Assembly: GCA_965204375.1 (NCBI GenBank)
Contig: OZ241986.1
Location: forward strand, 4,896,001 to 4,960,000
DNA: 64,000 bases
Source: Candidatus Latescibacterota bacterium
GTDB taxonomy: Bacteria; Latescibacterota; UBA2968
Direction of reading: 5' to 3'
In this document: positions 5,516 to 52,193 of the stretch, one piece after another
Layout: each line of letters opens with the position of its first letter
Position numbering within the stretch: the stretch's first letter is position 1
Notes under the pieces: model-generated
Told to the model about the DNA's origin: nothing
The model's database searches: none
Seen by the model: only the letters and a program-made list of their open reading frames with translations
Program-made: the position numbers and the translations under genes

Positions 5516-5743
5516 ATGCAGATGCCGAACCTCGAAACCCGCGTTGCTTCTCTTGAGGCTGTTCAGGCGCAAATCAATGAGCGTTTGGGCAGCATCGAAA
5601 ACCGGTTGACCAGCCTTGAAACGCGCATGGACAACCGCTTGACCAGTATCGAAAATCGACAAGCCAGCAATTTCAGGTGGCTTGTTGGCATCCAACTTAC
5701 CACGCTTATCACGCTCGGCACGCTCATTCTGTTCAAACTCTGA
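5516..5743 (+). CDS. Small coiled-coil protein with C-terminal TM helix (XhlA/DUF1640-like); paralog of 39934-40143
   Basis: Heptad-rich N-terminal part, hydrophobic WLVGIQLTTLITLGTLILFKL tail and RBS gggag. Confidence 0.75.
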   Translation: MQMPNLETRVASLEAVQAQINERLGSIENRLTSLETRMDNRLTSIENRQASNFRWLVGIQLTTLITLGTLILFKL

Positions 5744-8405: not shown

Positions 8406-8423
8406 TCGCGTCAATCTATCAAC

Positions 8424-8457
8424 AAAAAAGAGCGAGTCCTTTTCGACTCGCTCTTTT
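8424..8457. terminator. Bidirectional intrinsic terminator between convergent genes
   Basis: The inverted repeat aaaagagcgagtc / gactcgctctttt has A- and T-tracts on its flanks. Confidence 0.85.
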
Positions 8458-8486
8458 CATTACAGCGTCTTCATCAAGACAGACAC

Positions 8487-10034
8487 TCATTTTGAGCTGA
8501 TCACGTCTTTTCTTTCCCATTCCTCACTCTTAAACGGCTCCATTATCTCACCGGGTATTTCTATCTTCTCCACCGCGGGCTTCAATGCGCCAACAAGCAC
8601 AATAACCCCTCTATCCTCAAGAGCTGGAATATGCGTTCTGTACGACATGGCGCTCAACGGATTACGCTCCACATCAACCAAATCTCCAGTACCCAATCCC
8701 GTATTTGCCACAAGAGGCGAAAGATCTGAGATACTGTTGATAAAAAGAATCAGCCTATTCAGACGGGTCAATCTCGATAGGGGGGTGATATCCGTGATCC
8801 GGTTGCGATCAAGAGTCAGATCTGTCAGATTGGTCAAGCCCGATAGAGGTGTGAGGTTCGAGATACTGTTGATGGAAAGATACAATGTTGTCAGATTGGC
8901 CAAACTCGATAAGGGCGTGACGTTCGAGATCCTGTTGTCGGAAAGAGACAGCAATCTCAGACTGGTCAAACTCGATAGAGGCGTGAGGTCCGAGATACTG
9001 TTGGTAAAAAGAATCAGCCTATTCAAACGGGTCAGGCTCGATAGGGGCGTGATATCCGTGATGTCGTTGATGGAAAGATACAATGTTGTCAGATTGGCCA
9101 AACTCGATAGGGGCGTGAGGTCCGAGATGATGTTGCTGGAAAGAGACAGCGATCTCAGACTGGTCAAATCCGATAGAGGCGTGAGGTCCGAGATGATGTT
9201 GCTGGAAAGAGACAGACTTGTCAGATTGGTCAAGCCCGATAGAGGTGTGACGTCCATGATACCGTTACCGAAAAGAGTCAGATGCCTCAGGTTGATCAAG
9301 CCCGATAGAGGCGAAAGATCCGAGATGCTGTTGCCGGAAAGAGTCAGACTTGTCAGGCTGGCCAAACCCGATAGGGGCGTGACGTCCGTGATGCTGTTGC
9401 CGGAAAGATTCAGCCTTTCCAGACTGGTCAAACCCGATAGGGGGGTGATATCCGAAATGTCGTTGTCGTCAAGATACAGATAAGTCAGGTCGGTCAAACC
9501 CGATAGGGGCGTAAGATCCGAGATGCTGTTGCTGTTGACAGATTGCCCTTCTACTCTCTCATCACCAAAATCTAGAAATGTCAAACGGGGGGCAAACTCA
9601 AGCCCGGTCAAATCCCTGATATTCGCATTCCGTGCCTCAATACGCATCAAGCGCACCATCTTACTTCTGGCAATCGGCTCACCGCTCGACTGGCCGAGAA
9701 TATCCTCGACAATAGCACGCAAATTCGCATCTGGAATGACAATTAGTGCCGCCTCATCGCCGCTCTTGTCAAAATTGCTGCTAAAAATCAGAAAATCGGA
9801 AAATCCAATTTCGCCATCCCTATTCAGATCGTATCTGGCATCATAACGCCCATCCCCCTGACGTGAACCAAACTGACTTACAAACGCCAAAAAGTCAGGG
9901 AAATCAACCTGACCATCCCCATCAAAGTCCGGGGTAAGAGCTTGATCGCCCACCGTACTATTCTGCGCCGAAAGAGACAGCGGATACATCAAAAGCGCGA
10001 ATGTTGATAGAATGAACAAAATCTGTTTACGCAT
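8487..10034 (-). CDS. Secreted internalin-like leucine-rich-repeat protein with N-terminal paired EF-hand (dockerin-like) domain
   Basis: Signal peptide, DFDGDGQVDFPDFL...YDLNRDGEIGFSDFL, IPDANLR cap, 22-aa LRRs (LxxLxLxxNxIxDLTPLSxL) and C-terminal cap NPLS...DRG...KPAVEK. Confidence 0.9.
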   Translation of the reverse strand: MRKQILFILSTFALLMYPLSLSAQNSTVGDQALTPDFDGDGQVDFPDFLAFVSQFGSRQGDGRYDARYDLNRDGEIGFSDFLIFSSNFDKSGDEAALIVIPDANLRAIVEDILGQSSGEPIARSKMVRLMRIEARNANIRDLTGLEFAPRLTFLDFGDERVEGQSVNSNSISDLTPLSGLTDLTYLYLDDNDISDITPLSGLTSLERLNLSGNSITDVTPLSGLASLTSLTLSGNSISDLSPLSGLINLRHLTLFGNGIMDVTPLSGLTNLTSLSLSSNIISDLTPLSDLTSLRSLSLSSNIISDLTPLSSLANLTTLYLSINDITDITPLSSLTRLNRLILFTNSISDLTPLSSLTSLRLLSLSDNRISNVTPLSSLANLTTLYLSINSISNLTPLSGLTNLTDLTLDRNRITDITPLSRLTRLNRLILFINSISDLSPLVANTGLGTGDLVDVERNPLSAMSYRTHIPALEDRGVIVLVGALKPAVEKIEIPGEIMEPFKSEEWERKDVISSK

Positions 10035-12310
10035 CAGTTTTTCCTTTCTTCAATCTCCAACGATTCCATTATCTCACGGAAAATGTCTTGTTCTATCTTC
10101 TCCACCGCGGGCTTCGACGCGCCAAAACGCAACTCAATCCCTCTGTCCTGAAGGATTGGAATGTGCGCATTGATTGATGTCGCACTCAACGGATTATTCC
10201 GTACATCAACCCGATCTCCACTGTCCAATCCCGTATTTGCGACCAGGGGCGAAAGATCCGAGATGTTGTTACTGGAAAGAGATAGCGACCTTAGATTGGT
10301 CAAGCCGGACAGGACAGATATATCCGAAATGTTGTTTCTAAAAAGACTCAGCGATACCAGGTTGTTCAAGCCGGATAGTGCAGATATATCCGAGATGCTG
10401 TTGGTGCTAAGAAACAGCGACCTTAGATTGGTCAAGCCGGACAGTGCAGATATATCCGAAATGTTGTTGCCGGAAAGCAACAGCGACCTCAGCCTGGTCA
10501 AGCCGGACAGGACAGATATATCCGAGATGCTGTTGCGGTAAAGATCCAGCCGTGCCAGATTGGTCAAGCCGGACAGGGAGGATACATCCGAGATGCTGTT
10601 GGTGTCAAGATCCAGCCATTCCAGATTGGCCAAGCCCGACAGGGGCGAGGGATCCGAGATACTGTTCTTGTCAAGATCCAGCCGTGCCAGATTGGTCAAA
10701 CCGGATAGGGGCGTGAGGTCCGAGATACTGTTCTTGTCAAGATACAGCCGTTCCAGGTTGGTCAAGTCTGATAGAGTACCAGAGAGTGCAGAAAGGTCTG
10801 AGATTGAGTTGCCGCCAAGATCCAGCGTTCTCAGGTTGGTCAAGCCCGATAGAGGCGAGAAATCGGAAATATGGTTACTATTAACATAACCCACACCAGA
10901 CACGAATTCTGTGCCGAGGTCCAAACTCGTCAGACTGGTTGCCAACTCAAGCCCGGTCAAGTCCCTGATGTTCGAGTTCGGAACTTCAAGTTCTGGGAAG
11001 AATGCCATCTCAAAATCGGTGATCGGATCATCTGATGCCTTGCCCATAGCGATCTTAATCGCCGCACGCAAGTTGGCATCCGGGATATTTGCTTCTGATA
11101 GGTTGAACAGACGCGACAGTATTGACCTGTCCCTGATCATAGTATCGTTGTAAAGAATCAGCACTGCCAGATTGGTTAAGCCCGACAATGGCGAGATGTC
11201 CGAGATAATGTTATGGGAAAGGTTCAGCGATGTCAGATTGGTTAAGCCCGACAATGGCGAGATATCCGGGAATAAATTGCCGGAAAGGATCAGCACTGTC
11301 AGGTTGGTCAAGCCTGATAGAGGTGTGAGGTCCGAGATGATATTATCGGAAAGGATCAGCGATGTCAGGCTGGTCAAGCCCGACAATGGTGTAAGGTCTG
11401 AGATGATATTATTGGAAAGGTTCAGTGATATCAGACCCGTTGCAAATTCGAGTCCGGTTAAATCGCGAATATCCGAATCCTGTGCCTCAAGGCGTATCAA
11501 ACTCGCCATCTCTGCTCTGCTGATTGACGCACCACTCGCCTTGCGCAGTGCAGTCTCGATTGCTGCGCGCAGGTCCGCATCTGGAATGGTAACCGGCGTT
11601 TCCGGTCCACCGCCACCATTGTTAGACGTAGATACCTCTTTGCCAAAGCTACTGCTAAAGAGCAGAAAATCGCCAAAGCCAATCGCGCCATCGCTGTCCA
11701 GATCGTACTTCGCTTCATATCTCCCATCGTCTTGACGCGCCCCAAACTGACCCGCAAACGCCAAAAAGTCCGAAAAGCCAACCTGACCATCTCCATCAAA
11801 GTCTGAGGTAAGGTCTTGTAAATTTAATTCAACACGCACATCCATAGTTGTGCTTTCAAATTGTCCACCCCGACTGAGTTCTGCACGCACCAACCGAATC
11901 GCCGTGCCCGAAAATGCAGCCGTTGTGCGAAAGCGAACTGTACCCACCAGACCGCTATTGGCAGTTGCACGACCGCCCAGAGATGCAATGCCAATTTCGA
12001 CAAAACCTGTACCTTGCTCTGGAAGTGCCTGCGCATTGGGCAACACATCGCCCACATCAAAACCCTCATACACAACCTGACTGGCGTCGTATTCAAAACG
12101 CGCAGCAAGGCCATTCGCATTCTGAATACCTGTGCCGAAGATCTGAATAGCGACAACCTGATCAACGGACACATTGAGGGACGTAACTGATTGATCGCCC
12201 GCGGTATCATTTACATCCAGCGATAGGGAAAAGGTATTTTGTGCCGAAAGAGACAGGGGGGACATCAGAAGCGCGAGTGTTGATAAAGTTGACAGAACTA
12301 TATTCCGCAT
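10034..12310 (-). CDS. Secreted LRR protein: cohesin-like domain, paired EF-hand (dockerin-like) domain and two internalin-type LRR blocks
   Basis: Signal peptide, then a beta-rich domain of about 140 aa (RFEYDASQVVY...SGLVGTVRFRT), DFDGDGQVGFSDFL...YDLDSDGAIGFGDFL, two IPDAxLRAAI caps and 22-aa LRRs. Confidence 0.88.
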   Translation of the reverse strand: MRNIVLSTLSTLALLMSPLSLSAQNTFSLSLDVNDTAGDQSVTSLNVSVDQVVAIQIFGTGIQNANGLAARFEYDASQVVYEGFDVGDVLPNAQALPEQGTGFVEIGIASLGGRATANSGLVGTVRFRTTAAFSGTAIRLVRAELSRGGQFESTTMDVRVELNLQDLTSDFDGDGQVGFSDFLAFAGQFGARQDDGRYEAKYDLDSDGAIGFGDFLLFSSSFGKEVSTSNNGGGGPETPVTIPDADLRAAIETALRKASGASISRAEMASLIRLEAQDSDIRDLTGLEFATGLISLNLSNNIISDLTPLSGLTSLTSLILSDNIISDLTPLSGLTNLTVLILSGNLFPDISPLSGLTNLTSLNLSHNIISDISPLSGLTNLAVLILYNDTMIRDRSILSRLFNLSEANIPDANLRAAIKIAMGKASDDPITDFEMAFFPELEVPNSNIRDLTGLELATSLTSLDLGTEFVSGVGYVNSNHISDFSPLSGLTNLRTLDLGGNSISDLSALSGTLSDLTNLERLYLDKNSISDLTPLSGLTNLARLDLDKNSISDPSPLSGLANLEWLDLDTNSISDVSSLSGLTNLARLDLYRNSISDISVLSGLTRLRSLLLSGNNISDISALSGLTNLRSLFLSTNSISDISALSGLNNLVSLSLFRNNISDISVLSGLTNLRSLSLSSNNISDLSPLVANTGLDSGDRVDVRNNPLSATSINAHIPILQDRGIELRFGASKPAVEKIEQDIFREIMESLEIEERKN

Positions 12311-17792: not shown

Positions 17793-18001
17793 CCAGTCTG
17801 CCGAATACCAAAACACAAGGCTCAAGGATCATACCAGATTGATGGGGGTAGAACTTGTTCCATACTCACTAAATCTGGGTGCTATAATTGTGACTATTGA
17901 CTTTGTAAATAGTCCGCTTGACGCTTGAAGGCTTGATTTTATAGATGTATCTTAGTACATTGAATCATATCGCACAACACCATAAACGGAGGAGAAGCGA
18001 C

Positions 18002-18211
18002 ATGTCCACACAGCCAGCAAATCAATCCGATTCCAGCCGTGAGCGAGAACGTGCCGTTATGCTGGAGGATGCGTTGGCCCGACCAGGGGTCCGCGAAGTA
18101 ATGCGAGCTTACCAGAACTACCAAGAGGCAGATAGGGGGCTTGATCCTTACCGCTTGGCAGCTAGTCGCCCGAAAACCGTGACCGTATCTAATAGTACTA
18201 ACTACGCCTGA
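18002..18211 (+). CDS. 69-aa hypothetical peptide upstream of a ClpP-fold protease
   Basis: Strong RBS GGAGGAG, a promoter-like TTGAAG-17-TATCTT upstream, and a 23-nt gap to the next gene. Confidence 0.7.
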   Translation: MSTQPANQSDSSRERERAVMLEDALARPGVREVMRAYQNYQEADRGLDPYRLAASRPKTVTVSNSTNYA

Positions 18212-18234
18212 GCTTACATGAAGGATAACATTTT

Positions 18235-19209
18235 ATGCCAGTGTGGAGCGAAATCTTCACGGAACTTCTTGCAACTGGACAACCGCCCCATTTAGACTTT
18301 GACGGTATCAGAAGAAAATATCTCCTGGAATTGAATAATCACACAAGACGTAATGTTGTCCTATACGCTTCGGGATGGCTTCAGAAGGGGGACGCGCCTT
18401 CCATTTTGATCAGCGATGAGGACATTCACGCCCTCATGGAAGTAACATCGGGATTAAACGGTGGCGAGCTTGACCTGATTCTACATAGCCCTGGAGGTTC
18501 TCCCAATGCGGCTGAGGCTATAGTCTCTTATTTACGATCTCGATTCTCTCACATTCGGGTAATTGTTCCCCTGTACGCTAAGTCTGCGGCGGCCATGATT
18601 TCATGCGCTGCTGATGAGATTGTGTTAGGTAAGCACTCATTTCTGGGGCCGACCGACCCGCAAATTTTGCTTACCACCGCTTTAGGGTTTCGCCCTGTTC
18701 CTGCTCAGGCTGTCTTAGACCAGTTCGACAAAGCCCAAAAGGAATGCTCTGATCCAAAAAAATTACCGGCTTGGGTACCCATGTTGAGTCAATACGGCCC
18801 TGACTTCTTGATCCAATGTGAAAGAGCACTGGCCTTGTCCAAGGAACTTGTGAGAACTTGGTTGGAAGCCTATATGTTTAAAGACTGTGCCGATGGCCCA
18901 GAGAAGGCAAGGGTAGCCGCTAAGTGGCTTGCTGATCACAAGAATTTCAAGAGCCATGGGCGCCACATATCACAAAAAGCCCTCCTGGAGCATGGTCTGA
19001 GAGTGACTGAGCTTGAAGACGATCCTGATTTACAAGACCTCAGTTTGTCGGTATTTCACGCAACGACTCATACATTTAGCTTGACTCCTATAGTCAAGAT
19101 CGTTGAAAGCCATACCGGTCATGCATTTATCCAGCATTACAGACCTCCACCATCTCCACAACAGGCAATTCAAGTTGATTTGGGCATTGCCCCTGACCAA
19201 CCTATGTGA
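18235..19209 (+). CDS. SDH-family (DUF114) ClpP/S49-fold serine protease
   Basis: Motifs LDLILHSPGG, AKSAA (catalytic Ser), LGPTDPQ and HGRHI. Confidence 0.85.
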   Translation: MPVWSEIFTELLATGQPPHLDFDGIRRKYLLELNNHTRRNVVLYASGWLQKGDAPSILISDEDIHALMEVTSGLNGGELDLILHSPGGSPNAAEAIVSYLRSRFSHIRVIVPLYAKSAAAMISCAADEIVLGKHSFLGPTDPQILLTTALGFRPVPAQAVLDQFDKAQKECSDPKKLPAWVPMLSQYGPDFLIQCERALALSKELVRTWLEAYMFKDCADGPEKARVAAKWLADHKNFKSHGRHISQKALLEHGLRVTELEDDPDLQDLSLSVFHATTHTFSLTPIVKIVESHTGHAFIQHYRPPPSPQQAIQVDLGIAPDQPM

Positions 19210-38462: not shown

Positions 38463-39464
38463 ATGGCTAGACTAAACAAAACAGACTTATTCCATGTGCT
38501 GTTCGACGCTTTTCTCCAGAACACAGACGCTGTCTATTTTTTAGGTGGAGAGAACCCTTACCGATTCTCCTTCAAGGACAAATTTGTTAATGCATTCATT
38601 GTAAACGTTCACTTTGCTGGTGCTGGACGCAGTACTTCTGATGAATACCGGATCCAATGTCCAGGACATTTGCCAGCGACACTACGCAATCTAAGAAGAC
38701 AGGGAGACGGGGTATTCGTCTTGGGTTTTTCCGCAGACTTACAGGCCTTCAGTGCTTGGGACCCAGATAGATTTTTGGATCGGAATCCGGAAGTCCAGCG
38801 GTTTTCTGTCTATACTCGATTATCGGGCATGGAGGATGCTGCTGTAGAAGGATTCTCAACTTATACTGATACCAATGGGCAAAATGTGATCATGTTTCGT
38901 CCCGATCTTCTCGGTTTGTATATGGAGAACTCGACAGCACTCCACCAAGCTGCTCCTCGGACATTGCGAAGGATAGCCGAAGTCTATAGTAACATCCAGT
39001 CGGAACAACAACCCCCTGTGCGATCAATCATGGTTGAACGACAGAGAATCCAGGTAACTCGCACTCAGTATTCTCGAAGCCCACGGTTCAGGCAAGAGGT
39101 CTTGAGAGCTTACTCCCACAGGTGTGCAATGTGCGGGATTCAATTAGACCTTATAGATGCAGCTCACATTGTTCCACATGCCCATCCAGAAGGAACTGAT
39201 ACGGTCAACAATGCCCTGGCCCTTTGCGCTCTGCATCATCGTTCGTTCGACACGGGACTACTCTATGTGCGGAGGGATTATTCAATCCATCTGAACTCAA
39301 CCAAAGTCAGGCACTTGAGAAAAGTAGGCAGGACCAATGGACTGCGATGGTACACACGGCAACTTAGACCTGAACTGCTCCTACCCGCCTATGATGATTG
39401 GCTTCCTGCACCGGATAACCTCACTCTTGGAAATGATCTTCGAGGGGTTGGATTAGAGGGATGA
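38463..39464 (+). CDS. HNH endonuclease with an N-terminal methylase-associated (MTaX1-like) domain
   Basis: C-terminal FRQEVLRAY..RCAMCG...DAAHIVP...NALALCALHHRSFDTG and N-terminal H..G.GR...DEYRIQ. Confidence 0.85.
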   Translation: MARLNKTDLFHVLFDAFLQNTDAVYFLGGENPYRFSFKDKFVNAFIVNVHFAGAGRSTSDEYRIQCPGHLPATLRNLRRQGDGVFVLGFSADLQAFSAWDPDRFLDRNPEVQRFSVYTRLSGMEDAAVEGFSTYTDTNGQNVIMFRPDLLGLYMENSTALHQAAPRTLRRIAEVYSNIQSEQQPPVRSIMVERQRIQVTRTQYSRSPRFRQEVLRAYSHRCAMCGIQLDLIDAAHIVPHAHPEGTDTVNNALALCALHHRSFDTGLLYVRRDYSIHLNSTKVRHLRKVGRTNGLRWYTRQLRPELLLPAYDDWLPAPDNLTLGNDLRGVGLEG

Positions 39465-39500
39465 GACAGTCCTATTTCTTAAAAACAAAGCAGTGAATAA

Positions 39501-39572
39501 CGCTATGGTTTCACCGACGAAAAAACTGATTTTATCGTGAAATATGACATTAAGTATCGTATGGGGCGATAA
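39501..39572 (+). pseudogene. Stranded ancestral C-terminus of the methyltransferase
   Basis: Reads RYGFTDEKTDFIVKYDIKYRMGR*, matching the YGFTxEExDFIINYDIKYRMG terminus I recognise for this methylase family. Confidence 0.75.
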
Positions 39573-39635
39573 GCAAATACAAACGGGTTATAATTGACTG
39601 AACACAAGTATCACAGCTCACAATATTTTGACAGG

Positions 39636-39684
39636 GTGAAACAAAAATACCTCTTGACATATCTATTTGAAGTGGCTTAAATCG
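39636..39684 (+). repeat. Promoter-containing 49-bp direct repeat, copy 1 (copy 2 at 45246-45294)
   Basis: 45 of 49 positions are identical by eye. It contains TTGACA-17-TTAAAT. Confidence 0.85.
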
Positions 39685-39879
39685 TTAGAGGCGATTGATT
39701 TTGGAGAAAAAAGATGAGACTCACCCCCCCACAGAGTCAGAGACAAGCCGCATCAACGAGGAAACCCGGGACGCGAAACGCGGTGGAAACAGCCATTCGA
39801 ATGTCAAAGGGCAATAAGTCACGCAAATGGGAAATCGTTGCTCCTCGAGTAATCTCTCGATGGCCTTCTCCTAAGACCA

Positions 39880-39925
39880 GCGAAAGCAGGGCGTAATTTA
39901 TTTTTTTAACACAAGCACTGGAGTA
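39880..39925 (+). repeat. Spacer repeat flanking the small TM gene
   Basis: GCGAAAGCAGGGCGTAATTT is identical at 39880-39899 and 40167-40186. ACAAGCACTGGAGTA is identical at 39911-39925 and 45347-45361. Confidence 0.85.
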
Positions 39926-39933
39926 TTTGAATT

Positions 39934-40143
39934 ATGCAAATGCCAAGCCTTGAAAGCCGCGTGGCTTCTCTTGAAGCTGTCCAAGCGCAAATCAACGAGC
40001 GTTTGGGGAGCATTGAGAACCACTTGACGGCATTGGAAAACCAACAATCCAGCAATTTCAGGTGGCTTGTCGGAATCGTGATAAGCACACAGCTAACAAC
40101 GCAAATCACGCTTGGAACCCTGATTCTGGTCAAACTCGGATAA
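39934..40143 (+). CDS. Small coiled-coil + TM protein, paralog of 5516-5743
   Basis: MQMPSLESRVASLEAVQAQINERLGSIEN...NFRWLVGI is near-identical to the 5516 ORF. RBS ggag. Confidence 0.75.
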   Translation: MQMPSLESRVASLEAVQAQINERLGSIENHLTALENQQSSNFRWLVGIVISTQLTTQITLGTLILVKLG

Positions 40144-40213
40144 ACAATGGCAGGTGTTTGCGAGTGGCGAAAGCAGGGCGTAATTTTTTTTAGTACAAGC
40201 AAGCATTGAAGTT

Positions 40214-40262
40214 CATTACAAAAATCCCGTCTGGTCATTCCAGCGCGGGATTTTTATTACAT
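40214..40262. repeat. 49-bp hairpin repeat, copy 1 (identical copy at 45362-45410)
   Basis: cattacaaaaatcccgtctggtcattccagcgcgggatttttattacat, with stem aaaaatcccg/cgggattttt. Confidence 0.9.
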
Positions 40263-40332
40263 TTGGAAGATGATCACTGAAGGCTGACAGAGGAAAGAGA
40301 GAAATAGGTCAGCTTGACTTTGGGAGCACTGC

Positions 40333-41293
40333 ATGAGAGTCACAGCCGTGCGCATAGAGAACTTCCGGGGCATCAAGCAACTCGAACTGAAACTTGACGA
40401 AATTACAGTACTAATAGGCGAGAACAACTCGGGCAAGACCGCTGTGCTTGACGCTTTGCGACTCTGTCTCCGGGACCTCGGTCCGAGGCGTGTGGTCTTT
40501 GATGCGCTCGATTTCCACTTATCCGATGCAGACGCGGAGCCTTCCTCCGCAGAGCCAATCCAGATCGAGATCTCATTCTCTGAGCAAAAGATAGGCGAGT
40601 GGAACGCCCAACTGACCGGTCGCCTCAATCGAGAAGGGGTCCTTCAGGTCGGAGATGACGAACGCAACCATGTGCTCTTGCGAGTGACCTGCAAATACGA
40701 TTCGACCAGCCAGGATTTCGCACAGGAGTGGTCATTTCTAAACCCGAATCGAGAGTCTCTGACCAACGTGGGACCTCAAGCACTCGCGGGAATCCAGCAA
40801 GAAGTTTCCTACTTCTATCTGACCGCGCTTCGCGATGCAGCGCGCCACTTTGATGCAAATGGTCCGTTCTGGCGGCCATTTCTGCAAAATACCCAACTTG
40901 AGGTCGGAAAGAAAACGGAAATTGAGCAGAAACTACGCGAGGTCAATGAACTTGTCGTTGATTCGCATGCCAGCTTCGGACAAGTCCGAACAGCTCTCAG
41001 CCAGGTGCAAAATGTGATTCCCTTGACATCGGGCGATGTCGTCTCAATTGAAGCCGTACCTGTACGATACGATCTATGCGCCTTTCATGCCCAATCAAAA
41101 TCTATCAAAAATTGAAAAACAGCCAAGTGATCCAGACTACTGGACCGAGTATGCTAAAAACCTCCCGAGAAGGGCTAAGACCCATGCGGCAGCAGATGTA
41201 GCAGTCGAAATGGAACAGCGTGGCGTACAGGGCGTGACAAAAGAGATTCGCGATGTATTGAATAAGGTTATCTCACTGGCAGGAGGTACATGA
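40333..41293 (+). pseudogene. gajA: OLD-family ATP-dependent nuclease (GajA-like) with an internal deletion and frameshift
   Basis: Contains ENFRGI and Walker A GENNSGKT. The frame breaks after VSIEAVP (about 41062). A second frame gives a native-looking C-terminus ending VISLAGGT* that overlaps the UvrD start (ATGA). No Walker B/EEPE or TOPRIM (VEG, DxD) motifs remain. Confidence 0.7.
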
Positions 41294-43173
41294 TGTCGAT
41301 TGATCTCAATGGCCTCAATGAGAATCAGCGCACTGCCGTATCGTGGAACAGCGGACCGCTTCTGGTCCTGGCGGGACCGGGTTCTGGCAAGACGCGCGTC
41401 TTGACATTCCGCGTCGCACGATTGCTTGAAGAACGCGAGGACGTGACAGCACTCGCGCTCACCTTTACGAACAAGGCTGCCGCCGAGATGCGCGAGCGCG
41501 TGGAGGCACTTCTCGGCGAACGCACAAGTCGCGCTCGTTTGCATACATTTCATTCCTTTGCAGCCACCATACTGCGTCAGCACGGAAGTCATTTGGGACT
41601 GCGGCCCGACTTTAGTTTGATCACGCAAGACCAGGACCAAATCTCCATCCTCGACGAGATTATAGCTAAATTGCCCGATTATGAAACACCATTGCCAACA
41701 GATCGAAAAAATCTCCTCAGCCTCATTGAACGCCTTTTTGCTGAATCCTATGACGGGTACGGAGACGCGCCATCACTTATTCGTACGCCCGAGTGGCTCC
41801 CACATCTCTTTGTAAGCTACTGCGATACTCTTTTAGCCAGTAACCGGCTCGACTTCGGAAGTTTGCTTCACTTCGCTCGGCGACTTCTGGAGGAGAAGCC
41901 TGGCGTCGCGCGAGTGGTGCGAATTGGTTGGTCCCACGTTTGCGTCGATGAGTTCCAAGACACCAACAAGGCACAGTACGATTTGCTCCGGCTAATTGCA
42001 CCCGATAAGCAACACAACCTCTTCGTAGTCGGTGACGACGATCAGATTATATATCAATGGAATGGCGCAAGCCCAGAACGGCTCGCGCATCTACAGCGGG
42101 ACTACAAGATGGTTGTGGTCCAACTCCCAGAATGCTATCGCTGTCCCGCGCCTATCATCGAGCTTGCCAATCACCTTATAGCTCATAATCGTCTGCGCAC
42201 TCCAGGCAAGACACCCATCACACCTCGATCCACGGCGAATCTGAATGGCAACCCTGTTCGCTATGGCATCTTCGCATCACCAGAAAAAGAAGCGGCATTC
42301 ATTCCAAAGGATATTCGCACTCGTGGTCTCCGAGGTGAGGAGTGCGTGGTTCTGGGGCGGTCCGTGAAGTTAATTGAGTGTGCAGCAGATGCTCTGCGCG
42401 ATGCTGGTTATGAAGCATATCTGGCGCGACAAAAGAACGACTTCGAGTCGGCTTCCGTGTGTGTGATGGTTGAGGCCCTTCGTTTAGCCAATGGGCGCCA
42501 CGACCGCGATATCCTGCGACGGCTCTGTCTCGCGTGGAAGAAACTGTCCGGGCAGACGCTTGAGGTTGACGATGTGGTCGCAAATGCCGCGCTTGTGGGC
42601 GGAGATTTCCTGCGTGCGTGGACTGATGCAGCATCCACAGACACAACAGGATGCGCTACCTTAACGCGCATTCGTTCAGATCTCGTAGATTCACTCGCCT
42701 TTCTGGAAATTATCAATTGGTTCCTCAATCAAGGCTGGCAGTTTTGGAGCGAAAAAGATGACCAGGATGCCGCCGATGAGGTGAAAACTTGGGAAAATCT
42801 GCATGACGAGATCATCCGCGAGTATAATCAGGGCAGCTTGACCTTGAACGCCTATCTTCAACAGATGGATCTCACTTCGAAAACACCTCGTCCAGGGCCG
42901 AACGCTGTGCGCTGTATGACTATGCATGGCGCAAAGGGTTTAGAGTTCAAGCATGTCTATCTAATTGGCCTGGCGCAAGAGGTACTCCCATCATATTACG
43001 CACTACAAAATGGGGAGAGAAGCAAGGAAGTGGAAGAGGAGCGGAGAAACTGCTTCGTAGCCATCACGCGGGCTGAGGAAACGCTGACACTTACGAGATC
43101 TGCACAGTACTACGGATACTTGAAGGCACCCTCTCAGTTCTTGGCAGAAATGGGAATCAGAGATAACAAATGA
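41290..43173 (+). CDS. gajB: UvrD/PcrA-like helicase (GajB-like)
   Basis: Motifs AGPGSGKT, TFTNKAA, TFHSF, VDEFQDTN, VGDDDQ, HGAKGLEF and EERRNCFVAITRA. It is coupled to the OLD nuclease gene. Confidence 0.8.
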   Translation: MMSIDLNGLNENQRTAVSWNSGPLLVLAGPGSGKTRVLTFRVARLLEEREDVTALALTFTNKAAAEMRERVEALLGERTSRARLHTFHSFAATILRQHGSHLGLRPDFSLITQDQDQISILDEIIAKLPDYETPLPTDRKNLLSLIERLFAESYDGYGDAPSLIRTPEWLPHLFVSYCDTLLASNRLDFGSLLHFARRLLEEKPGVARVVRIGWSHVCVDEFQDTNKAQYDLLRLIAPDKQHNLFVVGDDDQIIYQWNGASPERLAHLQRDYKMVVVQLPECYRCPAPIIELANHLIAHNRLRTPGKTPITPRSTANLNGNPVRYGIFASPEKEAAFIPKDIRTRGLRGEECVVLGRSVKLIECAADALRDAGYEAYLARQKNDFESASVCVMVEALRLANGRHDRDILRRLCLAWKKLSGQTLEVDDVVANAALVGGDFLRAWTDAASTDTTGCATLTRIRSDLVDSLAFLEIINWFLNQGWQFWSEKDDQDAADEVKTWENLHDEIIREYNQGSLTLNAYLQQMDLTSKTPRPGPNAVRCMTMHGAKGLEFKHVYLIGLAQEVLPSYYALQNGERSKEVEEERRNCFVAITRAEETLTLTRSAQYYGYLKAPSQFLAEMGIRDNK

Positions 43174-43188
43174 TTTGAAGACTATAAA

Positions 43189-43497
43189 GTGATGGCTGAC
43201 AACGGCATTAAAATAACCATGACGCCTTCGCACCCCGGAGATTTCATCCGCACGGAAATTGTTGAGGAACTGGGATTGAGTGTTACAGAGGCAGCCGAGA
43301 TTCTGGGCGTTCATCGAGCCACCCTTTTCGACCTGTTGAACAGCAATACAACCCTATCAGCGGAGATGGCTCTGCGTATTGAAAAAGCCTTTGGCATCAG
43401 CATGGACACACTATTGCGAATGCAGGCGTGGTACGACGCCGCACAAATGCGGGCGCGTGCAGATGAGATTGAGGTCAAACGCTATCAACCTGCTTGA
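43189..43497 (+). CDS. higA: HigA-family addiction-module antitoxin (no higB upstream)
   Basis: Motifs HPGDFIR, LSVTEAAEILGV, LSAEMALRIEKAFG and MQAWYD. Confidence 0.88.
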   Translation: MMADNGIKITMTPSHPGDFIRTEIVEELGLSVTEAAEILGVHRATLFDLLNSNTTLSAEMALRIEKAFGISMDTLLRMQAWYDAAQMRARADEIEVKRYQPA

Positions 43498-43539
43498 CAA
43501 CAGCTACTTGCGACCTTCAAGTTTTTTGAGAAAATAACG

Positions 43540-43761
43540 ATGAGAATATCTTATGATCGGGAAGTGGATGCGCTGTACATTTGCTTCAAGGAAACAACGG
43601 TGACAACGAAACATCTCAAAGATGGGATTGCGCTGGATTACGATGAGGCAGACCGTCTCGCGGGCATCGAAATTCTCGACGCTATGAAGCGGCTGGATGA
43701 TCCAGAGATATTCAAACAGGTCATCATAGAAGACATCGCGCTCGGTGAAAATAGAGCCTGA
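43540..43761 (+). CDS. DUF2283-domain protein (putative antitoxin)
   Basis: MRISYDREVDALYI...LDYD...LAGIEILDA. Confidence 0.85.
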   Translation: MRISYDREVDALYICFKETTVTTKHLKDGIALDYDEADRLAGIEILDAMKRLDDPEIFKQVIIEDIALGENRA

Positions 43762-43790
43762 GTGAACGCTGATCGGGCGAACTGAATCAC

Positions 43791-43835
43791 ATGATCAAGA
43801 ACGAGCGACAGTATAAAATAACGAGAGCGCAGGCA
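43791..43835 (+). pseudogene. N-terminal stump of an XRE/HTH antitoxin-like gene, cut off by the convergent Rpn gene
   Basis: Reads MIKNERQYKITRAQA and then runs into the Rpn stop. Confidence 0.55.
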
Positions 43836-43840
43836 GGCAT

Positions 43841-44770
43841 TCAAGCAAGTAACACGCGCTGAAATGCTTCAAGATTGGGCACCTGTATCGCCGCACGGAG
43901 CAACTGCTTGAGGTGTTGCAAATCATCAATCGCAGCAATGCGAGCAGATATAGGGTGTGTCTCGGGCATATCAAATCGAATCTTCAAGACATCAAGGATA
44001 TCTTCAATGGCGCGTTGCCTGCCTCCTTGCTCAATACCTTGCTCAATACCTTGCTCAATACCTTCCTCTCTACCTTGCTCAATGCCCAATTGCTTAATGT
44101 ATTGTGCAAACGATGACTCGCGCATAATGGCATCCATAAGACCCTCCTGTAATAGAATACGATTGATCAGGCTCGGATCATACTCTAACCCACTCAATAT
44201 CATCAACCTGCCCAAAAAGTCAACCTTTATTGATTCATCCACCGGCAAGGCATTCGTCGTGTCAACACAGTGACGCAACCACGCCTCTGAATCTATTCCA
44301 ACAGGACGTTTCATCAACGATGCGAATGGAAACAAGCCCGAAGGTCCGCCATCGAGAATGTCCTGTCCTTCTATCTCACTCAGCCGAACCACTGTGTATT
44401 TGATCACAACAAGATGACCGGATATTTCATGAATAAAGTACCCTGGATCGCGCCGACCCGCACTGCGCCGCAAGTAGATCACACTGGAATAAATCGGCAG
44501 ACCATGATGCTCAATCGCACGTATAATATAGCCCGCCATGCGGATCGGCATAGATGGATCGTCAGTGGTTTGAAACTCGTGATGTATCAATGCCTCCTTG
44601 CCCGCAATGTGGACGCGGATGAGGCTATCGGTATGTCGTGTTTCAACTGTCTTTTGCTCTGTGTCGAGTATGTCGAGGACTTCTATATCGTCCTGTCCAA
44701 ATGTGAGTCGGATGAAGTCTTTGGGATAGGTTTGGATGAGATGTTTGGAGATGGTGTCATATTCGGCCAT
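43841..44770 (-). CDS. Rpn/YhgA-like recombination-promoting nuclease (putative transposase, PD-(D/E)xK)
   Basis: YDTISKHL, TDSL...HHEFQT, MPIRMAGY and C-terminal GIEQ tandem repeats. Confidence 0.85.
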   Translation of the reverse strand: MAEYDTISKHLIQTYPKDFIRLTFGQDDIEVLDILDTEQKTVETRHTDSLIRVHIAGKEALIHHEFQTTDDPSMPIRMAGYIIRAIEHHGLPIYSSVIYLRRSAGRRDPGYFIHEISGHLVVIKYTVVRLSEIEGQDILDGGPSGLFPFASLMKRPVGIDSEAWLRHCVDTTNALPVDESIKVDFLGRLMILSGLEYDPSLINRILLQEGLMDAIMRESSFAQYIKQLGIEQGREEGIEQGIEQGIEQGGRQRAIEDILDVLKIRFDMPETHPISARIAAIDDLQHLKQLLRAAIQVPNLEAFQRVLLA

Positions 44771-45245
44771 GTGGAATGCCTCGCGTCTAATGGGGTGAGG
44801 GACAGTCAGACACAAAGCAAATAGCAGGCCAAAAAATAGTAATCCTCCAGAAATTGAGCGATATTTTGTATTCGGAGACGCCTGAACACCGTATTATATT
44901 TTATATACGTTGTATTCACACTTGTTCACAACCTGAATTTAAATCCGCAGATAGACTCAGATAGGCACAGGCAGGCGGCGCAGCAAGCAGGTGAAAGACG
45001 GAAGGGTACATTTTGAGCTATGAATAGGCGGTCAGGTGAAAAATATGTACCATTTGCCCTGTGGTCGCCGTGGTGAAAAACGCTCAAATGAACTGCTACA
45101 TAGTTGTACTCGCGTTTTTTTTGATTGCGCGTAACGTCAGGGAATAAGATATTGCAAAAACCAAACGAGTTCTACAGGGACGATTACGGCCCATTGACTG
45201 GGATGTTGCCGTCCACTAAATACACTGATCATAGTACGCGAATCA

Positions 45246-45410
45246 GTGAAACAAAAATACCTCTTGACACATCTATTTAAGATGGCTTAAATCGATGGCT
45301 GAAGAGTATGCTATCCGTTTGCTATCTTCAAAATACACATTTGTGTACAAGCACTGGAGTACATTACAAAAATCCCGTCTGGTCATTCCAGCGCGGGATT
45401 TTTATTACAT
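45246..45410 (+). repeat. Second copy of the promoter/spacer/hairpin skeleton
   Basis: 45246-45294 matches 39636-39684, 45347-45361 matches 39911-39925, and 45362-45410 matches 40214-40262. Confidence 0.85.
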
Positions 45411-45448
45411 ATCGCGCTCAGTGAAATCAGTTGGGTCATAAATTTGCT

Positions 45449-46084
45449 ATGAATCCTGAGAACAAAATACTTTTAACGCCTGATACTCCTGAATATCCAG
45501 CGGCATTACAGCGTTGTTCCGATAATGGGCGTCTGCTAACGGTCACAGCGCAGGGTAACCTCGATGTACTCGACAGTACATTGCTCGGCTTCTTCTGCTC
45601 GGTGCGCTCTCCCGGCGACACAATCCTCAAGACCTACGACCTTGCACGGGCACTACGAGACACAGACGCGACAATTATCGGCGGTTTCCAGTCACCGATG
45701 GAAAAGGAATGCCTGGATCTGTTGTTGCGGGGTACAGCACCCGTTGTCGCCTGCCCGGCGCGGGGACTCAATCGCATGCGAACTCCGAAAAGCTGGAAAA
45801 AGCCGCTCGCCGAAGGACGCCTGCTAATCCTTTCCTTTTTCGACAGCAACATCCATCGCCCAACTGCAACCATAGCAGCCCGGCGCAACGCGTATATCGC
45901 CGCACTCGCCGACCGCATCCTCATCGCCCATGCTGAACCGGGCGGCAAAACAGAGACGCTATGCAAGGACGCACTCGCTCAAAACAAGCCGGTATTTGTC
46001 CTTGACTCACCCGACAATGCTCACCTTATAGAACTCGGCACTATTCCTATCTCTGCTAACGATCCTGAAAAACTTATTCCTTGA
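45449..46084 (+). CDS. Short DprA/Smf-family (SLOG-fold) protein
   Basis: Motifs GFFCSVRSPG, IGGFQSPMEKECL, ARRNAYIAALAD and AEPGGKT. Confidence 0.8.
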   Translation: MNPENKILLTPDTPEYPAALQRCSDNGRLLTVTAQGNLDVLDSTLLGFFCSVRSPGDTILKTYDLARALRDTDATIIGGFQSPMEKECLDLLLRGTAPVVACPARGLNRMRTPKSWKKPLAEGRLLILSFFDSNIHRPTATIAARRNAYIAALADRILIAHAEPGGKTETLCKDALAQNKPVFVLDSPDNAHLIELGTIPISANDPEKLIP

Positions 46085-46149
46085 TAACACGGTGATTTTT
46101 AAATACTGTTCTGAATATAGCAATCAATCTCAATAATTATGCATGCTGG

Positions 46150-46177
46150 ATCGCGGCTAAAACCCTGCCGCGATGAC
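46150..46177. repeat. REP-like or terminator hairpin between convergent genes
   Basis: atcgcggc-taaaaccct-gccgcgat followed by gac. Confidence 0.5.
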
Positions 46178-48994: not shown

Positions 48995-49111
48995 ATCTTA
49001 CCCTCCGCGTAAAAAAAAACGCCCCCTTGTGAGGGAGCGTTTGTATTCAATATTTGTTTTGCCCAGTCGTCATTTGTCCCAAAATATAGGCGAGAAAAAC
49101 GGCTTTTGCAA
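48995..49111 (-). promoter_or_regulatory. pyrB promoter and leader containing an intrinsic terminator (candidate attenuator)
   Basis: TTGCAA-17-TATATT at 49111-49083. A hairpin AAACGCTCCCTCACAAGGGGGCG with a T9 tract (49042-49011) lies just before the RBS GGAGG. Confidence 0.7.
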
Positions 49112-49142
49112 GAGGAAAAAACGCGTGAAAACCGACCACAAG

Positions 49143-49171
49143 TTGACACAAACCCAAAATCAGAGTATCAT
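49143..49171 (+). promoter_or_regulatory. Sigma70-type promoter of glyQS
   Basis: TTGACA-17-TATCAT. Confidence 0.7.
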
Positions 49172-49217
49172 TTGGCCTCTAACCGCTGACCACGATACAC
49201 CAATTGAGGAACCACCT

Positions 49218-52193
49218 GTGAGCAACCACCTGAATTTTCAAGACCTGATCATGCGCCTCGAGTGCTTCTGGGCCGACAACGGCTGTATAATATGGCAACC
49301 CTACAGCGAAAAAGTGGGCGCAGGCACCATGAACGCCGCCACGGTTCTGCGCGTCCTCGGGCCCGAACCGTGGAACGTCGCCTATGTTGAACCCTCCTAT
49401 CGTCCCGATGACGGGCGCTTTGGCGAAAACCCCAACCGCATGCAAATGCACACCCAGTATCAGGTCATCCTCAAACCCGACCCCGGCAATCCGCAGGAAC
49501 TCTATCTCAAAAGCCTCGGAGCACTGGGCCTCGATTGCAAAGCGCACGACATCCGCTTTGTCGAAGACAACTGGGAATCGCCCGCCCTGGGTGCATGGGG
49601 CCTGGGATGGGAAGTGTGGTTAGACGGCATGGAAATCACGCAATTTACCTATTTCCAGCAAGCGGGCGGCATGCAACTCGATCCCGTAGCCGTTGAAATC
49701 ACCTACGGCCTCGAACGCATTGCCATGTACCTTCAAGGCGTGGATGAAGTCTGGCAACTGCAGTGGAACAACACCGTGACCTATGGCGACATCCTCAAAA
49801 AACAAGAAATAGAATATTGCAACTACGAGTTCTATTGGGCCGACGTCAACCGCCTCAAATCCATGTACGACATCTTTTTAGCCGAAGCCCAGGCAGCCCT
49901 CGACCGCGACCTCGTCATCCCCGCACACGACTACGTCATTCGCTGCTCGCACACCTTTAATCTACTCGACACGCGCGGCGCAATTGGCGTAACCGAACGC
50001 GCCCGTTTTTTTGCCCAAATGCGCGACCTCTCGCGCCAAATAGCCGAAGCCTATGTCGAACAGCGCGCAGACCAGGGACATCCCCTTGTAGAATCATCAA
50101 AGGACGAACCTCCACTGGTATCCAAAGCCGACGACCTGCCCGAAGTAGATACCGCCGATCTCCTGCTCGAAATCGGCTCTGAAGAACTGCCTCCCGCCGA
50201 TGTGGTCAGCGCCATAGCACAACTCGAAAAATTGCTACCCGAACACCTCGGCGAGGCAAATCTCACGTACGACAGCATCGAAGTCAGCGGCACGCCGCGC
50301 AGGCAATACGCCATCGTCAAAAATCTGCAGGGACGGCAACCCGATGAAATCAGACAAGCGCGCGGACCGGCCATCCGCATCGCCTATGACAATGACGGCA
50401 ACCCCACCCGGGCACTTCAGGGATTTGCCCGCGGACAGGGCATTGATCCATCAGACGTTGAACAGCGCGACGACTACGTCTGGGCGGGCATCACCATTTA
50501 CGGGCGCAAAACCCAGGAAATCCTCTCTGAACTGCTGCCCGAACTCATCGCCAAACTCAGCTTTGGCAAAACCATGCGCTGGAATTCCGAAGGCATCGCA
50601 TATCCGCGCCCCCTCCGCTGGATTGTCGCCCTCTTTGGCGATCAAATCATCCCATTCACTTATGCGCGTGCAACAGCAGGACGCACGAGCCGCGGGCTGC
50701 GCCCCAATGCAGAAATCGAAATTGCTTCTGCCTCTGACTATCGCGCGCAAATGCAAAAACACGGCATCGCAGTCAACCGCGACAAAAGGCGGGAAGCCAT
50801 CAAACAGCAAGTCGAAACAGTAGCCCAACAAATCGACGGCAGCGTACCAGACGATCCCGACCTGCTCGACGAAGTCACCGACCTCGTCGAAGCCCCACAC
50901 GCGCTTTGCGGCACCTTTGAAAGCGCGCGCCTTTCCCTACCCCGCGAAATGCTCATCGCCGTCATGAAAAAACACCAGCGGTATTTCCCGGTACTCGACG
51001 AAAAAGGCGACCTCAAACCCAACTTCATCACCGTGTGCAATGGGCTACCCGACGACCCCGACCTCGTCGTCAAAGGCAATGAAAACGTCATACGCGCCCG
51101 ATATGCCGACGCCAGATTCTTTTACGAAGACGACACAACCAAAAAACTCGGCGACTTTCTCACGCGCCTCGACACCCTCACCTTTCAAGAAAAACTCGGC
51201 TCTATGCGCGACAAAACCCGCCGCGTTGAAAAACTCGTCGGCGACTTATCTGGCGCGCTTGAACTTCAGGGAGAAAATAAAAAAGCGGCTCTGCGCGCAG
51301 CCGTATTGTGCAAAGCCGACCTGGCGACCAGCATGGTCGTCGAAATGACCTCCCTGCAGGGCACCATGGGCCGCTATTACGCCCTGTCTTCAGGTGAAAC
51401 GAAAGCCGTTGCGCGCGCCATTGAAGACCATTATCATCCGCGCTTCCCGGGCGACTCACTGCCCCAAACACAACCCGGTCTCGCCGTCTCAATAGCCGAT
51501 CGTCTCGACAGCCTCGCCGGTCTTTTTGGCGTGGGCATCAAACCCCGCTCAAATGCCGACCCTTATGGTCTCAGGCGCGACACCCTGGGCCTGCTTTCAA
51601 ATCTCCTCGGTTACAAAATGCATTTTTCACTGCGCCAGGGCCTCAACACAGCCGCCAAGCACTTGCCCGTTGTGGTCAAACGAGAAGCCCTCGACGAAGC
51701 CTTTGACTACATCATCCGCCGCCTCGAAGTCGTCTTGCGCGACGAGGGCCTGCGCCACGACGCGATTTCCGCTGCGATTGCGGAAAATCTGGATGACCCC
51801 TATCAAATCCAGCGGATCGCCCGGGCATTTACCGCACAAATCCATTCTGATCAATGGCTCGATATTCTCCACGCCCATGCGCGGTGCAAACGCATTGTGC
51901 GCGACCTCTCGGAACACTACGACCTCAATCCCGACTGCGATCCCGAAGAAGCATCTATAGCACTGCACAAAGCCTATCTCGCCGCGCGCAAAACAATGGA
52001 CACATCCGACGACAAACTCACTGCCCTGATCCAGGTCATGGTCGAATTGCGCGACCCCATCAACCGCTTCTTCGAAGACGTGCTCATCATGGTCGATGAT
52101 CCCGACCTCAAGCAATCGCGCCTCGCCCTTGCCCAGCACATCGCCGCCCTGCCCGACGGCATTGCAGACCTGAGCCAGTTTGAGGGATTCTGA
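49218..52193 (+). CDS. glyQS: Glycine--tRNA ligase, fused alpha+beta subunits
   Basis: Alpha motifs [32 protein letters not shown] and ITYGLER are followed in frame by beta motifs [19 protein letters not shown] and DPYGLRR. GTG start with RBS gagga. Confidence 0.95.

Follow-up and report, generated by a model that had tools for sequence, protein, structure and literature searches.

The turnover of systems in defence islands that carry no mobile-element genes is still an open question, and a locus of the uncultured phylum Latescibacterota offers a readable example of it. The locus lies in a 64,000-nucleotide stretch of the genome of a Candidatus Latescibacterota bacterium (GenBank assembly GCA_965204375.1, contig OZ241986.1, positions 4,896,001 to 4,960,000 of the forward strand; hereafter the window, whose own numbering is used below), where a promoter-like block (P), a 15-mer and a terminator-like hairpin (T) occur twice in the same order, once before a Gabija-like gene pair and once before a DprA-like gene. 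The first-pass annotation had described these blocks as a cassette array without an integrase, like an integron but driven by homology, in which they would serve as recombination arms or expression platforms. Comparison with 21 related species of the genus leads us to a different reading, to which we assign a probability of about 0.7: the blocks would be the surviving ends of a small protease operon, at which ordinary recombination exchanged, stacked and removed genes, and not an integron-like machine. Across these species, deletion end points, a one-sided insertion, an apparent allele swap and stacked relic operons can all be followed at the level of single bases, and they suggest that promoters and terminators can outlive the genes they once served and supply internal homology for later change.

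Two ordered copies of short blocks

The genome is a single contig of 6,340,849 bp, against all of which the blocks were searched with blastn-short. The three ordered blocks were recovered with the identities first reported for them: P at 39636-39684 and 45246-45294 (45 of 49 positions identical, 5610 bp apart), T at 40214-40262 and 45362-45410 (49 of 49, 5148 bp apart), and the 15-mer ACAAGCACTGGAGTA, exact at 39911 (to 39925) and 45347. The T repeat grows to 63 bp (40200-40262 and 45348-45410) with 60 positions identical. P and T each have these two copies and no others in the genome, which answers the genome-wide search that the first-pass annotation had proposed. Taken by itself the 15-mer pair is close to chance, as by our own arithmetic about two such pairs are expected in 64 kb; it is regarded as real because of its collinear position and its homology to the spacer that separates a 60-codon open reading frame (ORF60) from the terminator in relatives. 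A 20-bp repeat reported to flank a small transmembrane (TM) gene is also present, as the first 20, identical positions of a repeat matching at 24 of 25 (39880-39904 and 40167-40191); it consists of the last 17 nt of ORF60, stop codon included, and 3 nt of spacer.

An identical repeat of 49 to 63 bp could have produced a false join, or a falsely integrated circle, during assembly. Two short-read runs (X1 and X2), which are the likely source of the assembly, contain 97% of the sampled words, and their contigs stop inside T1 (40233-40243) and inside T2 (45381-45391) and cannot order the segments. Neither a joint of 40262 to 45411 nor a circle junction occurs in these contigs, which break at repeats longer than the word length, so that excision and chimerism are neither supported nor excluded by them. 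The same contigs nevertheless carry all four T flanks without a single mismatch, and, as the middle segment has T at both ends, the segments can be arranged only as assembled or as a circle together with a deletion. The joints also recur in independent assemblies, T-untranslated region (UTR)-Gabija in G006 (and, without the 28-bp UTR, in G013) and Rpn-P-T-DprA in G009, and the genome was assembled as one 6.3-Mb contig. An assembly artefact is accordingly extremely unlikely.

P and T as the probable ends of one small operon

P and T are probably the promoter and 5'-leader end and the terminator end, respectively, of a single small lineage-specific operon, both activities being predicted from the letters of the DNA. 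The operon would run in the order P, a protease of the SDH type with a Clp fold, ORF60, an optional XhlA-like TM protein and T. Unit a of genome G016 contains P, a 330-aa SDH_protease frame (PF01972, E 1e-16; NF047768 matched below its cut-off), ORF60, a short spacer and T, and is the whole operon. The protease of G017 is also whole (344 aa), and Pfam SDH_protease was matched in both; PADLOC models gave no match for the SDH protease, which matches the phage family phrog_21683 (E 4e-29). Using copy 1 of the window (741 bp) as query against 40 relatives, partial matches were obtained in 17 of the 20 other genus genomes, and a second family contributed matches from 2 of its 16 genomes.

ORF60 is a real coding gene, as its frame is open in all ten copies compared (nine genomes), every indel is a multiple of three, and pairwise differences at codon positions 1, 2 and 3 number 404, 357 and 645. 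Its relatives are confined to four clusters among 5.8 billion proteins, and it has no Pfam, NCBIfam, PADLOC or PHROG match. The TM protein matches Pfam XhlA below cut-off (E 0.0079) and a PHROG hemolysin family (E 3.5e-4), with an atlas feature score of 0.93-0.94. Its gene is identical at 207 of 210 nt to those of G012 and G013, and about 80% identical to those of G002, G018 and G015. A consensus scan lists a promoter-like site (TTAACA, 18 nt, AATTAT) at 39906-39935 (+), within the repeat DRa and directly 5' of the TM gene, which may thus possess its own start. Paralogs of the TM gene occur in the window at 5516-5743 (+), adjoining a DUF1828/DUF1829 gene, and in the genome at 3481351, 4234233, 4154163, 5720446 and 4148122. 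The HigA-family antitoxin encoded nearby was considered as a partner of ORF60 or the TM protein and dropped, given the strong hairpin between them and the presence of HigA also 3' of gajB.

A second SDH-type Clp-fold protease is encoded in the window (324 aa; phrog_11747, E 4.5e-83), with an 88-aa frame directly 5' of it (together 17945-19209, +); a similar small frame precedes unit b in G017. The protease at 18235-19209 was rejected as a third copy of the unit, being a distant paralog with 36% identity over 64 residues.

TTGACA is invariant in the ten P copies that could be aligned, from eight genomes. Type I copies have TTAAAT at 17 nt from it, and type II copies have TAAATC at 17 nt or CTAAAT at 16 nt. 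T has the features of an intrinsic terminator, namely a stable G+C-rich hairpin, a T run and placement after a stop codon: its RNA fold has -20.3 kcal/mol (z -3.36) and is followed by TTTTTATT, and it stands 70 nt past the TM stop in the window and about 50 nt past the ORF60 stop in relatives. Across 17 T copies 95% of cells are paired, with one compensatory pair (U-A to C-G). No Rfam family was matched at E up to 1 in window 39400-45600. The T core pattern had no match in a metagenome contig collection; searched in one genome per species it yielded 13 loci, 12 of them in this genus and one a chance match in a high-GC coding region of an unrelated metagenome-assembled genome.

Origins of T as a repetitive extragenic palindrome or an IS200/IS605-type element, suggested by its TTAC-like flanks, were dropped, in view of there being only two copies and of the gene remnants that duplicates carry; two copies in the genome are likewise too few for a miniature inverted-repeat transposable element. 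A contrast to T is provided by a 32-bp palindrome (ATCGCGGC...GCCGCGAT) at 46146-46177, where the DprA-like and AAA_14 genes converge; it has 27 genome copies at up to four mismatches. It lies mostly on the + strand below about 4.54 Mb and mostly on the - strand above, and is also found in otherwise unrelated DNA of G005, G010 and G014.

The first-pass annotation had placed exchangeable cargo between P and T. In 15 units from 12 genomes, the DNA between P and T holds only the protease, ORF60 and/or the TM gene, which is to say the operon in various states of deletion, and the claim is not supported; defence cargo lies 3' of T. The one exception is unit b of G016, where an insert of about 500 bp, non-coding in appearance and richer in G+C, separates the promoter block from the TM gene (L013 about 8400-9100, -). 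Rfam on the G016 units (L013 8100-10700) returned only a chance-level ctRNA match (E 0.87).

Two copies at apparently different stages of decay

The window probably holds two paralogous copies of this operon that have decayed to different degrees. Copy 1 retains P1, ORF60, the TM gene and T1. Its leader GGAGAAA..GATGA runs directly into the start of ORF60, as expected of a deletion between two similar start regions; the protease would have been lost by this deletion, which fused its ribosome-binding site (RBS) to the ORF60 start, and the TM gene would then have been gained or kept. On either side of the TM gene lies a copy of the ORF60 3' end with its spacer (39880-39925 and 40167-40213).

Copy 2 would have lost nearly everything through at least two internal deletions, leaving P2, some 42 bp of the protease gene, the native spacer and T2. 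What had been called a short unrelated filler in this copy is a remnant of the protease gene: 45298-45339 is identical at 41 of 42 positions to the interior of the SDH-protease gene of G016, and at 40 of 44 (90.9%) to that of G017. An intermediate state is found in G002, whose protease gene has a large internal deletion. P2 with its upstream flank matches unit a of G016 over 151 bp at 92.1%, and G009 at 78.8%. Coordinates of all features are collected in Table 1.

Table 1. Positions of the repeated blocks and of associated genes (window numbering unless a locus is named).
Feature	Position	Strand	Description
P1	39636..39713	+	Promoter-like block (TTGACA, 17 nt, TTAAAT) and 5' leader with protease RBS, now fused to ORF60 start
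ORF60	39714..39896	+	Conserved 60-aa basic protein; second gene of putative ancestral operon
DRa	39880..39925	+	ORF60 3' end and ORF60-to-terminator spacer, including 15-mer 39911-39925
Small TM protein	39934..40143	+	69 aa, C-terminally anchored, weakly XhlA-like; member of multi-copy family
DRb	40167..40213	+	Second, degenerate copy of ORF60 3' end and spacer
T1	40214..40262	+	Hairpin: 15-bp stem, one bulged C, 5-nt loop; A run and T run at flanks
Left HigA 5' UTR copy and first codons (ATG to AAG)	40263..40290	+	Left border of Gabija insertion
gajA pseudogene	40333..41293	+	Two frames (40333-41115, 41036-41293); 725-bp internal deletion at 41062/41063
gajB	41290..43173	+	UvrD-type helicase, intact; PADLOC GajB E 1.6e-218; Pfam UvrD
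Right 28-bp UTR copy and HigA-family HTH antitoxin	43174..43497	+	ATG at 43192; TIGR02607 E 5.9e-24, over cut-off
DUF2283 small protein	43540..43761	+	Pfam PF10049 E 7e-16
Rpn-like nuclease candidate	43841..44770	-	GIEQ four-residue repeats; 12-bp tandem repeat 44013-44086
Upstream context "b" of P2	45143..45245	+	Common to G016 unit a and G009
P2	45246..45294	+	Second promoter-like copy; 98% identical to P of G016 unit a
Protease-gene relic (3' part), copy 2	45295..45346	+	45298-45339 97.6% identical to L013 9796-9755, within the 330-aa protease frame
Copy-2 spacer and T2	45347..45410	+	Native ORF60-to-terminator spacer (15-mer) and T2 hairpin
DprA-like (PsyrA-like) gene	45449..46084	+	Pfam PF02481 E 3e-11; PADLOC PsyrA E 3e-16; conserved right neighbour of T
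G019 second-locus T copy	L043 (G019:C1:2886000-2896500) about 5090-5230	-	Between TonB-like gene and YhcG/DUF1016 nuclease gene

Defence cargo 3' of T

As in the relatives, where foreign cargo lies 3' of T, the cargo between the two copies would have built up downstream of T. The Gabija-like pair announced by the first-pass annotation is half intact, gajB being whole and gajA broken by a 725-bp deletion, and the window therefore has an incomplete system. The gajA pieces cover positions 1-246 and 494-567 of the 569-position PADLOC GajA model, the deletion causing a frameshift and removing about 247-493. Full genes in G013 (561-aa GajA), G006, G020 and the metagenome run X4 show the same 725-bp difference from the window.

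The pair is inserted at codons 3-4 of HigA, with an imperfect 28-bp duplication, 28 bp past T rather than at T. The two 28-bp copies are different alleles: the right one matches the UTR 3' of gajB in G020 at 93% identity, and the left one best matches T-linked UTR copies in G004, G012 and G018 (89-92%). The T-UTR-Gabija join is common to the window and G006, G013 has the join with the 28 bp lost, and G020 has only the Gabija-side sequence and no detectable T; since the junction is shared by the window, G006 and G013 (on the Gabija side, G020), the entry of Gabija was one event. It would have combined homology at HigA with an illegitimate joint at the opposite border, as homology-facilitated illegitimate recombination does.

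The Rpn-like gene was the single exception to a claim that integrases and transposases are absent. None is found by Pfam among the 54 open reading frames of the window; the exception itself is a weak NCBIfam match below cut-off (TIGR01784, E 1.9e-7, 31.2 bits against a cut-off of 52.1), restricted to residues 194-261, and the protein has no Pfam match and no PDB relative by sequence search. Variable four-residue repeats are described for the C-terminal domain of Rpn toxin-antitoxin proteins (10.1101/2023.05.02.539157), and the window gene matches this feature. A related strain (runs X4/X7) differs in the repeat, joining 44005 to 44072 with 18 other letters in between.

The placement of cargo just past T also bears on a reading that is compatible with the one preferred here, in which the blocks form a shared expression platform: P would drive transcription, T would be a leaky terminator or attenuator, and read-through would express gajA and the DprA-like gene. 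These genes start 70 bp past T1 and 38 bp past T2, respectively, and the consensus scan lists no promoter-like site in either interval, although promoters of this phylum may not fit the scan. The distant G011 and G017 retain the order protease, ORF60, T, DprA-like gene, of which G001 has a relic form. The strength of the hairpin and the T run that follows it speak against leakiness, and contigs of the RNA run X7 mirror those of the DNA run X4 from the same sample and are uninformative on read-through. We regard such a platform as a tentative and rather unlikely possibility.

The hotspot across the genus

Of the 21 genus species, 13 have T and 8 have P, in one or two copies; two copies are present in 6 genomes if T-like hairpins are counted, and the two of G019 are at different loci. 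The island is bounded by restriction-modification genes or an amidohydrolase on one side and by the DprA-like gene and pyrB on the other, and flank and island gene families recur in order in most of the 12 loci mapped (Table 2). In G005, G008, G010 and G014 housekeeping genes stand beside pyrB instead of the island. The distant G001, G011 and G017 have the protease or a remnant of it (a relic form in G001), ORF60, T and the DprA-like gene or a fragment, and this protease-ORF60-T-DprA arrangement looks ancestral. T is directly joined to the DprA-like gene in the window, G015 and G009, and again in G011 and G017.

Table 2. Order of island components in nine relatives (RM, restriction-modification genes; DprA, DprA-like gene; HTH, helix-turn-helix).
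Genome	Arrangement
G015	RM; P-TM-T; DprA
G009	T; Rpn; P-ORF60-T; DprA
G002	RM; P-protease remnant-ORF60-TM-T; HigA-DUF6932-HTH; DprA
G012	RM; DUF4238; T-HigA fragment-P-TM-T; HigA-DUF6932-HTH; DprA
G016	RM; AbiJ-like; P-protease-ORF60-T; HigA fragment-P-TM-T; HigA-DUF2283; DprA
G018	RM (broken); HigA fragment-P-ORF60-TM-T; truncated HigA
G013	amidohydrolase; HigA fragment-P-TM-T; Gabija
G006	RM; AbiJ-like; degenerate T; Gabija; HigA-DUF2283; DprA
G020	RM; unknown genes with IS630-like insertion; Gabija; truncated HigA; DprA

Across alleles the cargo comprises Type IIG restriction-modification, HKD-Snf2, HNH, Gabija, HigA and DUF2283 genes, as well as DUF6932 with HTH, AbiJ-like, DUF4238, Rpn-like and PDC-S01 genes. 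Shared flanks, variable content and enrichment in defence genes, the marks of a chromosomal defence hotspot, are all present. The insertion in G020 (L022 8337-9648, -), an IS630-like transposase with DDE_3 and HTH frames, is the sole mobile-element gene in the alleles examined.

The blocks recur throughout the genus as borders of rearranged DNA, as the term recombination arms had implied; they form no dedicated skeleton and are the ends of an operon. Homologies and deletion end points are directly visible in the alignments, and so are shuffled contexts: each of the ten P copies joins one of three upstream contexts to one of two P sequence types and one of four downstream contents, and T has at least three right-hand partners, namely HigA, the DprA-like gene and Gabija. 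Identity is equally mosaic. P1 and ORF60 are 95-96% identical to G002, the TM gene and DRb are 99% identical to G012 and G013 against 79-81% to G002, G018 and G015, and P2 with the protease relic is 96-98% identical to G016. These patterns look like allele swaps with breakpoints at the blocks. The homology-driven part of the first proposal is thus half right, in that mosaic identities and shuffled contexts bear it out and a purpose-built platform is not seen.

Duplicated copies drag neighbouring sequence with them. The ORF60 3' end is found on both sides of the TM gene, and a second locus of G019 has a 115-bp copy of the ORF60 3' end, spacer and T in front of a YhcG/DUF1016 PD-(D/E)XK nuclease gene. 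Since duplicates carry remnants of their neighbours, they point to the copying of segments and not to a site-specific element. In the mechanism we favour, four short conserved blocks (P, T, the 3' end of ORF60 and the 5' end of HigA) would outlast every rearrangement and offer homology passively. Between such blocks, homologous recombination would exchange alleles and delete or stack the intervening DNA, and one-sided (homology-facilitated illegitimate) joins and microhomology joins would bring in new genes and trim old ones. The pathways, and any present function of the relic copy, are what we infer from these patterns.

That the blocks are the product of a single old tandem duplication, inert since and with fixed cargo, was a further possibility to be considered. 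The arrangement of two T copies with an Rpn-like gene between them is common to the window and G009, and so predates this genome, as such a duplication would. The cargo, however, varies among relatives, with at least ten arrangements among the island-bearing genomes examined, and the mosaic identities likewise contradict inert copies; we consider a single duplication without later role very improbable.

A dedicated site or passive homology

Several observations weigh against the recombination reading. The sample of 21 related species is small and its members are kin, not independent of one another. T is the best-conserved element of the locus: in the seven closest congeners that carry the island its identity is 96-100%, against 88-97% for most coding genes, and in the four distant species it is 88-93%, against 73-86% for neighbouring genes. 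Its loop and inner stem are nearly invariant, which is more than a plain terminator requires, and several rearrangements terminate exactly at its 3' edge. A gene resembling the "recombination-promoting nuclease" Rpn lies near or between the copies in the window and in G009, and a role of Rpn in RecA-independent transfer is reported (PMC5350276). The promoter and terminator activities are deduced from sequence, and the consensus promoter/terminator scan listed neither P nor T; P was missed because its -10 element has no A at position 2, T was probably missed owing to the bulge in its stem, and promoters of the host phylum may not fit the scan consensus. Lastly, the direction of events is not readable: the single copy of G015 (P, TM, T, DprA) could be ancestral or the product of a T1-by-T2 deletion.

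Part of this evidence would fit a dedicated cassette platform, with T and P as a specialised site at which an enzyme, perhaps the Rpn-like nuclease, captures, stacks and releases defence genes. The conservation of T exceeds that of any gene of the locus, T joins at least three right-hand partners at the same edge, the DprA-like gene of G011 has a T-like hairpin on both sides, the G019 copy precedes a nuclease gene at another locus, and the Rpn-like gene is adjacent in the window and G009. Against this, the locus never holds more than two copies in any genome, T is found nowhere else in the genome, and the sole match outside the genus in the one-genome-per-species search is the chance one in high-GC coding sequence. 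Duplicated T copies bear ORF60 3'-end remnants and so arose by segment copying, and the one shared entry of Gabija lies 28 bp past T. The genome has no integron integrase over cut-off, T inspected by eye lacks inverted core sites of the attC type, and the Rpn assignment is below the family cut-off. A dedicated platform is hence quite improbable. In a variant that we hold to be equally improbable, T and its promoter partner would be a lineage-specific landing pad, conserved beyond pyrB across the genus, whose DNA or RNA structure is recognised by a host factor, possibly Rpn-like. If true, such a factor would break DNA at T and thereby drive the capture and stacking of defence genes under the guidance of homology, filling the role of an integron with no integrase.

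Comparison with known systems

The reading of ordinary recombination at operon ends was compared with four known systems. Integrons consist of an integrase (IntI), attI, attC sites and a promoter (Pc). The locus shares with them the promoter-proximal place, consecutive genes without obvious promoters of their own and a hairpin repeat between units; unlike in integrons, the hairpin resembles a terminator in its A and T runs, insertions lie elsewhere, and the repeats carry gene remnants. A search of the whole genome with TIGR02249 gave four stretches in two frames (297 and 308 aa), the best at 88.6 against a cut-off of 265 bits and far from the window. On the 17-copy alignment no inverted core sites of attC were seen by eye in T, whose flanks CATTAC/ATTACAT are direct and not inverted. 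With no IntI over cut-off, no attC features and at most two T and two P copies in any of the 21 genomes, the description as a cassette array like an integron is not borne out.

Closer parallels are found among defence hotspots without integrases that are exchanged through conserved flanks, as PMC10250203, PMC5635113 and PMC10121019 describe. The likeness extends to the fixed position, conserved flanks, variable defence and toxin-antitoxin content, the lack of an integrase in most alleles and exchange plausibly by homologous recombination; it ends where short non-coding blocks inside the island, the ends of decaying operons, serve here as recombination borders as well. Orphan-module arrays at type VI secretion system effector-immunity, Rhs and contact-dependent inhibition loci are attributed to homology-facilitated illegitimate recombination in PMC5361080. 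Both kinds of locus add modules beside a conserved anchor, displace old genes that leave truncated relics and have relic fragments that bracket stacked modules, and the Gabija insertion, with one homologous side (HigA), one illegitimate side and a 28-bp duplication, is of the same form. The anchor differs, being here a promoter/terminator pair and the HigA 5' end in place of a toxin N-terminal region, and so does the cargo, which is anti-phage and toxin-antitoxin.

The ancestral operon also calls to mind the module FS_HP_SDH_sah, which comes from phage-satellite work. It resembles the operon in pairing an SDH-type protease with a small unannotated protein among defence genes, and this is a resemblance only; here the small gene is 3' of the protease, and the protease has been deleted from both window copies. 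The gene name is used for a small protein plus SDH-type protease anti-phage module in PMC13532340.

We place the locus, as a new and well-resolved example, in the known class of recombination-shaped defence hotspots; it does not represent a new kind of genetic element. It flags three candidates for further attention: the pair of SDH protease and ORF60, the DprA-like gene that is always kept at the island edge, and the unusually conserved hairpin.

Other features of the window

The stretch 8487-12310 (-) encodes two large leucine-rich-repeat proteins of 515 and 758 aa, made up of 66-bp repeats, and further repeat families lie between these genes and their neighbours. At 49029-52193 (+) the alpha and beta subunits of glycyl-tRNA synthetase are fused in one open reading frame of 1054 aa.

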